NCBI GenBank assembly: GCA_027623315.1
Contig: JAQBYD010000002.1
Location: 52,140 to 116,139, forward strand
Length of the DNA: 64,000 nt
Direction of reading: 5' to 3'
Source of the DNA: Verrucomicrobiota bacterium
GTDB lineage: Bacteria; Verrucomicrobiota; Kiritimatiellia; CAJWTS01
The position numbers and the translations under genes are program-made. The notes below the pieces were generated by a model. The model was given only the letters and a program-made list of their open reading frames with translations. It was not told where the DNA came from and ran no database searches. Positions 47,815 through 54,348 of the stretch are shown piece by piece. The stretch's first letter is position 1. The number at the start of each line of letters is the position of its first letter.

Positions 47815-47840
47815 GGTTCAGGGGTCAGGGGTCAGGGGTG
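47815..47840. repeat. Short tandem octamer array, GGGGTCAG-like x3 (reads CTGACCCC in the fmdB sense direction)
   Basis: ggttcagg ggtcaggg gtcagggg. It sits immediately 5' of the fmdB-like start codon, whose ATG on the minus strand is at 47811. Same unit family as the arrays at 48160-48290 and 54253-54348. Confidence 0.6.
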
Positions 47841-48159
47841 AGTGGCGCTAACTTAAGGAGGCGTCCCATCCAATTCGAGAACCTTGACGAGAACTACTTT
47901 CGAACGGTGCAGGTTCAGGAATCGGTGGTTTCCGGTTTAGTTCTCGGCAATGTTCTCGATGTGGATCTCCGGAGTGGCTCTCGATCCCGCCGCTGCGGGA
48001 TTCTCGGGATAGTTTGATTACCGTTCTGGACGTCATTTATCCTAGCGGCGTTCGGGTCGGTTGTCAGTTATCAGTTGTCGGTCTCACCGAAATGCTTCTA
48101 TTCGACTCATCAAGTGGAATCTGATTGACCAGGCGATCGGCGGGTTGAAACGACTCTTC

Positions 48160-48290
48160 CTGACTCCTGACTCCTGACTCCTGACTCCTGCCCCCTGACT
48201 CCTGCCCCCTGACTCCTGCCCCCTGACTCCTGACTCCTGACTCCTGACTCCTGACACCTGACTCCTGACTCCTGACACCTGACTCCTGAT
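48160..48290. repeat. Tandem octamer array CTGACTCC / CTGCCCCC / CTGACACC, about 16 units
   Basis: Read directly: ctgactcctgactcctgactcctgccccctgactcctgccccctgactcc… The array ends about 4 nt before the Top6B stop codon (TAG on the minus strand at 48295-48297). Confidence 0.85.
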
Positions 48291-48294
48291 CCTA

Positions 48295-51509: not shown

Positions 51510-51626
51510 GGTCGCAGGATCCGCGACTCGAGTGCGCTTCGAACTTCAAGGCTCGATCGCGGACCTTGACCTCCCCTCTGCATCTGGCACGATCACTTTT
51601 CTAAACCTTGAGCCCTGGACCTCCCC

Positions 51627-54155
51627 ATGAAGGAAAAATACCCATTCTCTGAGATTGAGCCAAAGTGGCAGTCCTACTGGTCTGAACACAAGCTGTTCGA
51701 GGTCGATTCCGCGCAGACGCAGAACAAGTACTATTGCCTGATGATGTTTCCGTATCCGTCCGCCGCGCTGCACGTGGGGCATGGCCGCAACTACATTATC
51801 GGCGATGCGGTGGCGCGCTATAAGAAGATGTGCAATCTCAACGTGCTGACGCCGATGGGTTGGGATGCCTTCGGGTTGCCTGCCGAAAACGCCGCCATCG
51901 CAACCGGCATCCCGCCGCGCGAAAGCACCTTGAAGAATATCGCCACGATGAAGCAGCAGTTCGAATCGTGGGGCGTGTGCTATGACTGGTCGCGCGAGGT
52001 GGCATCCTGCGAACCTGATTACTATCGATGGACGCAGTGGCTCTTCCTGAAGCTTTACGAGAAGGGGCTGGCCTATAAAGGAAAGGCGCCGGTGAACTGG
52101 TGTCCGTCGTGTGTGACCGTGCTCGCCAACGAGCAAGTCGTTGACGGTGCCTGCGAACGCTGTGAGTCACCCGTCGAAGAGAAGCTGCTCGAGCAATGGT
52201 TTTTCAAGATTACCGAGTATGCTCAGCGACTCCTCGACGACCTGCAGAAACTGGATGGCTGGCCTGAGCCGGTCAAGATCATGCAGGCCAACTGGATCGG
52301 CCGCAGCGAGGGCACGATTGTCAATTTCGACCTCGTTGCCAGGGATGATGGCGATCCGGAGACCGTCAAGAGCGTGCCGTGCTATACGACGCGCGTCGAT
52401 ACGATCTACGGGTGTACCTACATGGTGCTCGCACCGGAGTATCCCGGAATCGCCGAATTGGTGAAGGGCCTGCCTGAAGAAGACAACGTGCTGGCCTTCG
52501 TCAAAGAGGCCAGTCAGATCGCCGTGCGTGACCGGGCGACCGATTCCCTCGAAAAGAAGGGCGTGTTCACCGGGCGCAGCGTCAGAAATCCGTACAACGG
52601 GGAAAACGTTCCGCTGTGGGTCGGGAATTACGTGATCATGGACTATGGGACCGGCGCGGTGATGGCGGTTCCCGCACATGACACGCGCGACTGGGCCTTT
52701 GCCAAGCGATATGGCCTCGAGATTCGACTCTCGATCCAGAACTCTGAGCAATCACTCCATCTCGATGAGATGGATGACGCGTATACCGAGGACGGCATCA
52801 CGGCCAACTCAGGCCCATTCGACGGGCTGCCAAACCGGGATGCGATTCCAAAGATGACCGAACATGCCGCGGCCGAGGGGTTTGGCGGGCCGATGGTGGA
52901 TTATCGATTGCGCGACTGGCTGATCAGCCGGCAGCGCTATTGGGGCGCCCCGATCCCGATGATAAAGTGCGAGGAGTGTGGTGTCGTCCCCGTGCCCGAA
53001 GCGGACCTGCCGGTTCTGTTGCCGGAGGACGTCGCGTTTCGGCCAACCGGCGAGTCCCCGCTGGCGCTTTCGGAGTCATTTATGAACGTCGCGTGTCCAT
53101 CTTGCGGGAAAGCCGCGAGACGCGAGAGCGATACGATGGACACTTTCGTGGACTCGAGCTGGTACTTTCTGCGTTTCTTGAGTGCGGGGGACGATTCGCA
53201 GGCGATCGACACCGAGCTCTCGAACCGATGGATGCCGGTGGATCAGTACATCGGCGGGGTGGAGCATGCCATTCTGCACCTGCTCTACGCGCGATTCTTC
53301 ACCAAGGCTCTATATGATTTGGACCTGGTCGGATTCGACGAGCCGTTTGCGCACCTCTTCACGCAGGGCATGATCTGCAAGCGGTCCGATGCCGACGGCC
53401 AGCTCTACAAGATGTCGAAGTCGAAAGGCAATGTCGTCAGCCCGGACGATCTGATTCGTAACTATGGTGCCGACACCGTGCGAGTCTATACCTTGTTCAT
53501 CGGTCCCCCCGAGAAAGACGCCGAGTGGAGCGACCAGGGGATCGAGGGCGCATCGCGCTTTCTGCGGCGGCTATGGCGCCGTGTCCACGATAACCACGAC
53601 ATCCTGACTTCCGCTGCCGGGCTCGATCCGGCCCTGGCCCGCATGGACGATGCCGAGCGCAGCCTTTATCGAAAGACGCACGAAACGATCCAAAGTGTGA
53701 CGCAGGATATGGAGGGCGCCTTCCATTTTAATGCGGCGATCGCCCAGATTATGGAACTGCTGAACGCGATCGACGATTGCGAGGTGGCCGAAGACAGCAG
53801 CGACCAGCGCAAGGCGGTGTACCGCAAGGCGATCGAGACGGTGGTGATTCTCTCGTCGCCCTTCGCACCCCACATTTGTGAGGAGCTGTGGTGCGAGCTC
53901 GGTGGCCAACCGAGTATTCTCACGCAGGACTGGCCTGCCGTGGACCCGGACGCCCTGCTGCGCGCGGAAGTTGAGATCGTCTTGCAGGTGAATGGCAAAG
54001 TGCGCGGTCGCGTGACCGTAGCCGCCGACAAAGATCCCAGTGAGTTGGAGGTCGAGGTGCTGAGCTTGCCCGAAGTCCAGAAGTATACGGAAGGCAAAGC
54101 GGTCCGAAAGGTGATCGTCATACCGAACAAATTAGCCAATGTAGTGGTCGGATAG
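51627..54155 (+). CDS. leuS: Leucyl-tRNA synthetase
   Basis: HVGH (…SAALHVGHGRNY…) and KMSKS (QLYKMSKSKGN) class-I motifs. 842 aa. Confidence 0.95.
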   Translation: MKEKYPFSEIEPKWQSYWSEHKLFEVDSAQTQNKYYCLMMFPYPSAALHVGHGRNYIIGDAVARYKKMCNLNVLTPMGWDAFGLPAENAAIATGIPPRESTLKNIATMKQQFESWGVCYDWSREVASCEPDYYRWTQWLFLKLYEKGLAYKGKAPVNWCPSCVTVLANEQVVDGACERCESPVEEKLLEQWFFKITEYAQRLLDDLQKLDGWPEPVKIMQANWIGRSEGTIVNFDLVARDDGDPETVKSVPCYTTRVDTIYGCTYMVLAPEYPGIAELVKGLPEEDNVLAFVKEASQIAVRDRATDSLEKKGVFTGRSVRNPYNGENVPLWVGNYVIMDYGTGAVMAVPAHDTRDWAFAKRYGLEIRLSIQNSEQSLHLDEMDDAYTEDGITANSGPFDGLPNRDAIPKMTEHAAAEGFGGPMVDYRLRDWLISRQRYWGAPIPMIKCEECGVVPVPEADLPVLLPEDVAFRPTGESPLALSESFMNVACPSCGKAARRESDTMDTFVDSSWYFLRFLSAGDDSQAIDTELSNRWMPVDQYIGGVEHAILHLLYARFFTKALYDLDLVGFDEPFAHLFTQGMICKRSDADGQLYKMSKSKGNVVSPDDLIRNYGADTVRVYTLFIGPPEKDAEWSDQGIEGASRFLRRLWRRVHDNHDILTSAAGLDPALARMDDAERSLYRKTHETIQSVTQDMEGAFHFNAAIAQIMELLNAIDDCEVAEDSSDQRKAVYRKAIETVVILSSPFAPHICEELWCELGGQPSILTQDWPAVDPDALLRAEVEIVLQVNGKVRGRVTVAADKDPSELEVEVLSLPEVQKYTEGKAVRKVIVIPNKLANVVVG

Positions 54156-54252
54156 GGCGACGCCGCGGAGGAAGGTCTCAGGTGTCGTCCTGAAATAGGT
54201 TTCCCTCAAGAATGCTCTTGATCAGGACGATAACTGTAACGATAACCTCTCC

Positions 54253-54348
54253 CTGACACCTGACACCTGACACCTGACACCTGACACCTGACACCTGACA
54301 CCTGACACCTGACACCTGACACCTGACACCTGACACCTGACACCCATG
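54253..54348. repeat. Tandem octamer array (CTGACACC) x12
   Basis: Perfect repeats ending …ctgacacccATG. The ATG at 54346 starts a 77-aa ORF. Confidence 0.9.

Follow-up and report, generated by a model that had tools for sequence, protein, structure and literature searches.

We analysed a 64,000-nucleotide stretch of DNA (the window) from a Verrucomicrobia metagenome-assembled genome (MAG; GCA_027623315.1, contig JAQBYD010000002.1), in which three tandem arrays lie in two intergenic spacers. One spacer separates the gene for topoisomerase VI subunit B (top6B) from that of an FmdB-like zinc-ribbon protein and holds two arrays, and the other separates the leucyl-tRNA synthetase (LeuRS) gene from a conserved open reading frame (ORF) of 77 amino acids (ORF77) and holds the third. 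Tandem Repeats Finder (TRF) identified the unit of all three as the heptamer CTGAC(A/T/C)C. The arrays and their neighbours are the following:

54252..54344, + strand: C-rich forward array (CCTGACA)x13.3; TRF period 7, 100% matches; the length is a lower bound
48158..48293, C-rich strand on +: array (TCCTGAC)x19.6 with CTGCCCC and CTGACAC variants; TRF period 7, 86% matches
47814..47839, - strand (unit GGGGTCA on the + strand): array (CCCCTGA)x3.7; TRF period 7, 94% matches
54173..54186, + strand: G-rich two-unit remnant AGGTCTCAGGTGTC, found by the partner search, 17 nt past the LeuRS stop
48057..48081, - strand: degenerate TAACTGA-type triplet CGACAAC TGATAAC TGACAAC, from the sequence and a core-array scan, inside the top6B/Zn-ribbon spacer
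48295..50121, - strand: top6B, Pfam Topo-VIb_trans 5e-55
47326..47811, - strand: Zn_ribbon_8 (FmdB-like) gene, Pfam PF09723 at residues 1-42
51627..54155, + strand: LeuRS, by Pfam
54346..54579, + strand: ORF77, conserved, with a predicted membrane helix and no Pfam family, by its homologues

The window arrays are heptanucleotide simple sequence repeats and lie far beyond chance expectation. Allowing one mismatch at most, the two-unit pattern CTGACNCCTGACNC gave 33 matches in the window, all of which (33/33) fell within the three arrays; shuffled sequences averaged 0.35 matches and never exceeded 2. These matches and the TRF coordinates agree with a preliminary description of this DNA, which had reported three arrays of one motif at these places. 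That description had taken the unit for an octamer present in 12, 16 and 3 copies; the TRF period is 7, the unit is CTGACNC and the copy numbers are 13, 19 and 3.7, the difference arising because the first C of the next unit had been counted twice. In the register of the published TAACTGA repeats CTGAC[A/T/C]C reads NNCCTGA, and its G-rich strand reads G(T/A/G)GTCAG. As head-to-tail 7-nt units in runs longer than chance the arrays belong to the long simple sequence repeats (LSSRs, with units of 5-11 nt), and all three lie between called genes, as expected of non-coding repeats with units that are not a multiple of 3. The window units C(A/T/C)CCTGA match TAACTGA at 4-5 of 7 positions, short of the TAACTGA unit itself, and depart from the consensus GGGNATC / GGGGAYT of the intergenic repeats of Xanthomonas and Nostoc. 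They are contiguous 7-mers without spacers and thus unlike CRISPR arrays, in which repeats of 23-50 nt alternate with unique spacers. An Rfam scan of the window returned no family at the arrays, its sole match being RNase P RNA at 641-1037, and Pfam gave no match for a 73-aa ORF running through the 48.2k array or for two small ORFs in the spacer.

A fourth run, at 28283, had been described as related to the arrays and as likewise followed by an ATG. It has a different sequence with a period of 8 and then 6 in ~3 copies, its TRF score (33-43 for 28281-28314) resembles that of dozens of background matches, and the ATG at 28316 opens an ORF of 5 codons; we therefore dropped the link. A separate observation concerns a 28-nt, 96% identical inverted match between 47979-48006, in the top6B/Zn-ribbon spacer, and 28071-28098, 200 nt upstream of the 28283 run, which contains a small GC hairpin CCCGCCGCTGCGGG.

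On the plus strand the order of elements is LeuRS, 17 nt, the remnant AGGTCTCAGGTGTC, a spacer of ~65 nt, (CCTGACA)x13, 2 nt and the ATG of ORF77 at 54346, so that the reported end of this array 2 nt short of an ATG stands. ORF77 is a real gene since its homologues, with 95, 76 and 74% identity, are all exactly 77 aa long and share the same start codon. On the minus strand top6B, which ends TAG TAG, is followed directly by the 48158 array, which reads (GGAGTCA)n in the sense of top6B, then by a spacer of 318 nt, (CCCCTGA)x3.7, 2-3 nt and the Zn_ribbon_8 ATG at 47811, where the Pfam match begins at residue 1. The reported contact of the 48.2k array with the top6B stop codon is thus real at a distance of 2 nt (TAG 48297-48295) instead of the ~4 nt given, and the 47.8k array does adjoin the fmdB-like ATG in the sense orientation of that gene. 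A short ATG noted ~18 nt past the 48.2k array is antisense inside top6B and opens no ORF of ≥ 40 aa. Relatives of top6B at ~70% identity come from Verrucomicrobiota, Kiritimatiellia and Lentisphaerae. In the window and in a relative with 71% identity (L126) the gene after top6B is Zn_ribbon_8 and not top6A, while in a 70% relative (L127) top6A follows directly; we recognised no top6A beside top6B in the window, where a 378-aa ORF at 46290-47426 has no Pfam match.

The predicted RNA of the C-rich strands is essentially unstructured, as had been proposed, with minimum free energies of -5.6, -2.8 and 0 kcal/mol for the three arrays. Likewise in agreement with the preliminary description, neither array-adjoined ATG is preceded by a Shine-Dalgarno-like motif, which is present before ~40% of the crude ORF starts in the window. 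The arrays at 54252-54344 and 47814-47839 therefore lie forward, a few nt before a start codon and without a ribosome-binding site, in the manner described by MacGregor for TAACTGA repeats; the 48158 array, which follows a stop, does not. A role as translational leader tract, one of the functions suggested in the preliminary description, is accordingly plausible for the two start-adjoining arrays, which are structure-free, lack a Shine-Dalgarno motif and precede conserved starts. It fails for the largest array, since the 48.2k array follows a stop codon in the opposite orientation. A promoter and terminator scan found nothing at the 54.2k spacer and no terminator after top6B or LeuRS. In the 48.0k spacer it found one weak promoter-like site (48067-48039), the sole sigma-70-like match of that spacer, which overlaps the degenerate triplet at 48057-48081. 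The LeuRS start itself likewise lacks a Shine-Dalgarno motif and follows a C-rich stretch at 51600-51626, GCCCTGGACCTCCCC-ATG, which looks like two degenerate heptamer units and resembles CCCCTGAACCCCC-ATG ahead of the Zn-ribbon gene.

Comparison with further assemblies established both the reality of the arrays and their instability. The locus is also present in an ENA scaffold (L001), in a contig of the NCBI MAG GCA_027593205.1 (L002) and in two Logan contigs (L003 and L004) from two sequencing runs. These match the window without mismatch over 4-16 kb, and all differences lie at the two long arrays or at contig ends there. The ENA scaffold has a 100-N gap in both long arrays, the L002, L003 and L004 contigs all end inside the 54.2k array, and the NCBI contig L002 has another order and number of units in the 48.2k array. 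Because the assemblies differ only at the arrays the copy numbers in the window cannot be trusted, and 13 and 19 are lower bounds or choices of the assembler. The same breaks and gaps would be expected if the arrays were assembly artefacts, and a spacer of 483 nt between top6B and the Zn-ribbon gene that is bounded by inverted arrays, compared to 24 nt in a relative, would suit the ends of a mobile element of the miniature inverted-repeat kind (MITE-like) inserted into the spacer. Taken together we consider these explanations exceedingly improbable. Artefact is excluded as the source of the arrays themselves, since four independent assemblies, drawn from at least two sequencing runs, contain them, as do relatives from different samples. 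Apart from short matches of 22-29 nt nothing in the window or the fetched loci repeats the 318-nt spacer, there is no transposase nearby, and Rehm et al. saw no association of comparable repeats with mobile elements (PMC4692102).

The spacers of relatives show how these sites vary. At the LeuRS/ORF77 spacer four loci from four samples (L132-L135), in which ORF77 is 95% identical, can be aligned with the window and carry CTGATAA CCAATAA CCGCCCC, that is 2-3 degenerate units, in place of the ≥ 13 CTGACAC units of the window. One of these contigs begins inside a CTGACAC array beside the top6B stop, and L132 holds GGGGTCAGGGTTGTCC at the position of the window remnant 54173-54186. In a more distant relative (L138, 74%) (GGTGTCA)x3 follows the LeuRS stop and CCTGACA CCTGAAA CCTGTCT precedes the ATG, and the whole spacer folds as one stem from 12 nt past the stop to 1 nt before the AUG (-68 kcal/mol, z = -5.5). 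Throughout these orthologous spacers the ORF77 ATG is conserved and is always preceded by a C run. At the top6B spacer a relative from another sample (L125, 85% identity in top6B) has (GGTGTCA)n in the same orientation 34 nt past the top6B stop, its contig ending in the array. L127 (70%) carries an inverted pair of TAACTGA-/TAACCGA-type units between top6B and top6A (-99.7 kcal/mol, z = -5.7), and the window triplet at 48057-48081 is a BLAST match to its TAACTGA-type array. In L126 (71%) 24 nt without an array separate top6B from the Zn-ribbon gene, whose N-terminus is the same (MPIYEFYCPDC). Spacers with CTGACNC arrays in the window thus have TAACTGA- or TAACCGA-type units in relatives; position and architecture persist while unit sequence and copy number turn over fast, and the two types of unit interchange. 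Array length accordingly differs between assemblies and relatives (2-3 units against at least 13 at one site) in the comparison that the preliminary description had proposed. Its suggestion of slippage-prone microsatellites is well supported, given that length and unit variant differ among assemblies and close relatives with flanks that are identical or alignable. The L127 assembly (GCA_964550025.1) also contains (TGTTCGA)x19 at 7-139, downstream of a lipoate-protein ligase gene, and long heptamer arrays in this lineage are thus not confined to related sequences.

We scanned one genome per species for (CTGACNC)x4 and obtained at least 120 loci. Many come from filamentous and other cyanobacteria and numerous others from Planctomycetota, Acidobacteriota, Verrucomicrobiota, Chloroflexota, Gemmatimonadota, Bacteroidota and Actinomycetota. 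The following results refer to the matches listed, which include some Proteobacteria. The arrays contain 4-46 units, and which base (T, C, A or G) occupies the sixth position depends on the array. For 104 arrays from genomes other than the window's, with ≥ 330 nt on either side and the C-rich strand placed on top, we determined the position of the nearest gene boundaries. Within 15 nt of the array, 46/104 had a long-ORF boundary 3′ of the C-rich strand and 11/104 had one 5′ of it (p = 3e-6). The 46 boundaries on the 3′ side comprise 28 stops, of genes on the other strand, and 18 starts, of genes on the same strand, and the stop codon is often CTA (= TAG) in register straight after the last unit. 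This arrangement means that the C-rich strand is sense before a start and the G-rich strand is sense after a stop. All three window arrays share it, with a gene boundary within 3 nt on the 3′ side of the C-rich strand; two stand at starts with the C-rich strand sense and one at a stop with the G-rich strand sense. They thereby have the polarity described by Rehm et al. for the repeats of Xanthomonas and Nostoc.

A second regularity concerns inverted partners, which we defined as reverse-complement copies of at least 2 units (14 nt, ≤ 2 mismatches) within 400 nt. Among the matches listed a partner was present on the 5′ side of the C-rich strand in 26/104 and on the 3′ side in 2/104, compared to 4 and 5 for direct-repeat controls. 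A looser detector based on the core found that the order G-rich..C-rich (R..F) exceeds the reverse order 30 to 1. Partners usually share the variable base of their array, and by their flanking genes the paired arrays are co-directional in 16 cases, convergent in 7 and divergent in 3. Both long window arrays have such a partner, the pairs being of the kind described by Rehm et al.: the 54173-54186 remnant is the inverted partner of the 54252 array, with 13/14 positions complementary, and the 47814 array is that of the 48158 array. Each spacer is thus enclosed by a pair of arrays, both directed outward at the neighbouring genes. Both the polarity to the gene boundary and the partner arrays across the spacer had been overlooked in the preliminary description.

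The polarity holds irrespective of the orientation of the neighbouring genes, here as in the repeats of Rehm et al. (PMC4692102), and a DNA-level element acting on transcription or chromosome organisation regardless of gene orientation would show the same feature. Such elements could form non-B DNA (G-quadruplex on the G-rich strand, i-motif on the C-rich strand, or cruciform from inverted pairs) or be arrays for protein binding, the latter also suggested in the preliminary description. On the + strand 47812-47839, which contains the 47814 array, carries four G runs (G5, G4, G4, G4) that make up a canonical G-quadruplex motif by sequence, GGGGGTTCAGGGGTCAGGGGTCAGGGG, and related heptamers form a quadruplex in vitro (PMC4692102). 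A preprint on Nostoc also reports that deletion of a heptamer repeat alters the response of a reporter to NtcA and LexA. The two long arrays however carry GG runs only (GGTGTCA, GGAGTCA), enough for no more than a weak two-tetrad quadruplex. A single sequence-specific protein is hard to reconcile with the variable base and with the TAACTGA-type variants at orthologous sites, the 7-bp period does not fit the helical repeat, and we found no candidate protein. On balance a DNA-level function appears improbable.

We consider it probable that the arrays are polar intergenic heptamer repeats of a widespread class, driven by slippage and serving as structure-free leaders and stem arms, and that they are not phase switches. 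The unit, its instability, polarity, partners and turnover at orthologous sites are shown by the results above. Arrays would grow and shrink by replication slippage, and the very long arms in the window may be one-sided expansions of the short balanced inverted repeat seen in relatives; they look like such expansion and not like a functional requirement. The arrays would be transcribed within untranslated regions (UTRs) or intercistronic spacers. The C-rich arm would then provide a structure-free leader that has neither a Shine-Dalgarno motif nor an internal start and ends right before the AUG, and such a leader would favour Shine-Dalgarno-independent initiation. Where the arms are of similar size they could pair to a long stem whose base joins the upstream stop codon to the downstream start codon, and an intergenic stem of this kind could act in mRNA stabilisation or processing or in coupling the translation of both genes.

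A number of observations weigh against a leader and stem function. Three quarters of the 104 arrays elsewhere have no detectable partner, and some pairs lie between convergent or divergent genes, an arrangement that rules out coupling. The window arms are very unequal in size, and the LeuRS/ORF77 spacer of the window folds no better than shuffled sequences (z = -1.0), while its top6B/Zn-ribbon spacer folds moderately better than shuffles (z = -3.0). In the top6B/Zn-ribbon pair each unit leaves an A-C mismatch on the sense transcript, and G-U wobble pairing is available only on the antisense. A polarity that does not depend on gene orientation suits a DNA-level cause as easily as an RNA-level one, and no regulatory role was found for the Xanthomonas repeats (PMC4692102). 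The gene boundaries in the loci are also crude ORF calls, and long spurious open frames are common in GC-rich loci. Long ORFs are reliable in low-GC loci, and the polarity test was therefore repeated on these separately, giving 11 boundaries on the 3′ side against 2 on the 5′ side in loci below 50% GC and 31 against 8 in GC-rich loci (among the matches listed). The mirror-image comparison of the 3′ with the 5′ side is itself a control for spurious open frames.

A purely neutral origin, as functionless microsatellites, is a serious rival, which we nonetheless regard as unlikely. Slippage at heptamers, a unit length favoured in many bacteria, would create arrays at any place, and position and orientation would then be what purifying selection leaves as harmless at the edges of spacers: survivors would be A/C-rich and unstructured before a start and G/U-rich after a stop, arrays harmful to promoters, terminators or translation having been removed. 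The copy number differs ~5-fold at one site between relatives with a 95% identical ORF77 and beside housekeeping genes, the relative L126 has a 24-nt junction and no array, and the relative L127 has the different heptamer (TGTTCGA)x19. Rehm et al. saw no sign of regulation, and the neighbouring genes in their study were of random functional classes (PMC4692102), and the slippage hypothesis for 7-nt units, in the accounts given in PMC4692102 and PMC4679880, points the same way. Neutrality leaves unexplained the adjacency of 0-2 nt to stop and start codons and the excess of inverted partners with a shared variable base (26 vs 2 among the matches listed). Nor does it account for a paired layout that is kept at one spacer across relatives of 74-100% identity despite turnover of the unit, or for one CTGA core turning up again in many phyla.

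Hypervariable length is also what a phase-variation (contingency) locus would display, in which copy number switches the adjacent gene, and intergenic simple repeats can act in this way in pathogens according to the accounts in PMC4679880 and PMC4692102. The window arrays lie outside coding sequence, and we found no promoter hexamers flanking them at a spacing that a 7-bp step could tune. They adjoin the housekeeping genes of LeuRS, topoisomerase VI and the Zn-ribbon protein and the gene of a small membrane protein, and neither Rehm et al. nor MacGregor saw a link to surface or virulence functions (PMC4692102, PMC4679880). We consider phase switching very improbable.

Three further ideas were set aside. 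As C-rich, G-poor and untranslatable RNA the arrays could be taken for Rho-utilisation sites, but A/T-rich TAACTGA units show the same layout, and so do arrays of cyanobacteria, which to our knowledge have no Rho. Stop codons in all three frames of the forward strand would be a unifying rule for CTGACNC and TAACTGA and fail for the Xanthomonas unit GATTCCC, which has no stop. The GGAG of GGAGTCA is not a Shine-Dalgarno sponge because the variable base gives GGTG or GGGG elsewhere.

The preferred reading of the arrays as slippage-driven leaders and stem arms can be extended to a more specific proposal, that inverted heptamer pairs are a cross-phylum intercistronic RNA device for termination-coupled initiation and that CTGACNC, TAACTGA and GGGAATC are variants of one mechanism. 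The G/U-rich arm would begin within the ribosome footprint of the upstream stop and the A/C-rich arm would end at the downstream AUG, so that a terminating ribosome could melt the base of the stem and expose a structure-free start without a Shine-Dalgarno motif; slippage in either arm would tune the strength of coupling. We offer this as a speculation and regard it as improbable.

Other elements in the window were noted in passing. An intergenic repeat of ~165 bp occurs twice, at 31450-31650 and as an inverted copy at 40205-40410, with ~86% identity over the shared part. Its arms consist of tandem 9-10-nt units (CGCGGATNG, CGCGAATCA) around a perfect central palindrome GCAGTGTAGATCAGGGCGATC...GATCGCCCTGATCTACACTGC, and it is thus again made of tandem units arranged as inverted arms. 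The RNase P RNA at 641-1037 (+) is of bacterial class A and full length (220.8 bits). A 257-aa protein of the metallo-beta-lactamase (MBL) fold is encoded at 39309-40082 (+); its Pfam matches, taken from the L130 gene table, include Anti-Pycsar_Apyc1 (PF23023), and it is probably a generic MBL-fold hydrolase.

Knowledge of heptanucleotide arrays dates from 1990 for cyanobacteria and from 2007-2015 for other bacteria. The present analysis adds a GC-rich unit family, CTGACNC, that extends across many phyla including the PVC group, and provides an independent check that the polarity and inverted-pair layout known from Xanthomonas hold for a different sequence. The replacement of CTGACNC by TAACTGA-type units at the same spacers points to one common phenomenon and not to several unrelated repeats. 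The LeuRS/ORF77 and top6B/Zn-ribbon spacers are small and offer themselves for testing. In practice heptamer arrays break short-read assemblies and make copy numbers in MAGs unreliable.

Among known systems the enterobacterial REP/BIME elements are likewise intergenic, often just past stop codons, with inverted copies that form hairpins, are transcribed and influence the gene upstream, both in its expression and in the stability of its mRNA. They are built from imperfect palindromes (REPs) of ~35 nt and not from tandem 7-mers, and are mobilised by RAYT transposases; they have no homology of sequence or organisation to the window arrays. The LSSRs and the short tandemly repeated repetitive sequences (STRRs) of cyanobacteria include heptanucleotide tandems like those in the window, and many of the (CTGACNC)x4 matches listed come from filamentous cyanobacteria; LSSRs and STRRs are descriptive classes that rest on unit length and not on sequence or mechanism. 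The STRR consensus units of Calothrix PCC 7601 are reportedly CCCCAGT, TTGGTCA and CAACAGT and not CTGACNC. The reporter effects of heptamer-repeat deletion in the Nostoc preprint are modest and come with no mechanism. According to the accounts of Mrazek 2007 in PMC4679880 and PMC4692102, heptamers are the most abundant LSSR class in many bacteria, especially in the large GC-rich genomes of non-pathogens, and polymerase slippage has been proposed to favour 7-nt units. The preliminary description had called perfect 8-mer arrays of 12-16 units unusual in bacterial chromosomes, which according to these accounts is wrong for heptamers.

MacGregor (2015) described TAACTGA direct repeats with a patchy phyletic distribution in marine Beggiatoaceae, Cyanobacteria and Bacteroidetes (PMC4679880). 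Most are forward and stop ~1 nt short of a start codon with no ribosome-binding site, and a translational role was proposed for them; their RNA is predicted to be unstructured, stop codons occur on the forward strand and a minority of the repeats point to stop codons (PMC4679880). The window arrays share with them a heptamer with a CTGA core and the unstructured predicted RNA, and two of the three also the forward position before a start without a ribosome-binding site. They differ in their GC-rich units (CAC-, CTC- and CCC-CTGA) and in having 13-19 units where TAACTGA repeats mostly have 2-6. Stop-adjacent CTGACNC arrays outnumber start-adjacent ones (28 vs 18 among the matches listed), and inverted pairing is absent from MacGregor's description.

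The closest counterpart is found in the intergenic 7-nt tandem repeats GGGAATC of Xanthomonas and GGGGA(C/T)T of Nostoc, present in 2-26 copies (Rehm et al. 2015, PMC4692102). Their nearest ORF, in any orientation, almost always lies 5′ of the G-rich strand and usually within 50 bp, so that the G-rich strand is antisense just upstream of an ORF or sense just past a stop, sometimes overlapping it (PMC4692102). There are ~70 inverted ('convergent') pairs per Xanthomonas genome, most repeats are transcribed, the neighbouring genes are of random function, and related species share the position and type of a repeat while differing in its length and sequence (PMC4692102). The window unit is GNGTCAG and not GGGNATC, its host is a Verrucomicrobia MAG, and of the window arrays only the short GGGGTCA one contains G runs long enough (at least 3) for a stable quadruplex. 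A literature search for exact CTGACNC heptamer strings returned only unrelated eukaryotic papers. Tandem heptamers in intergenic position, polarity, inverted pairs and a position kept through turnover of length are all reproduced for CTGACNC. The arrays are therefore of a kind already described in the literature, for which CTGACNC is a new sequence.

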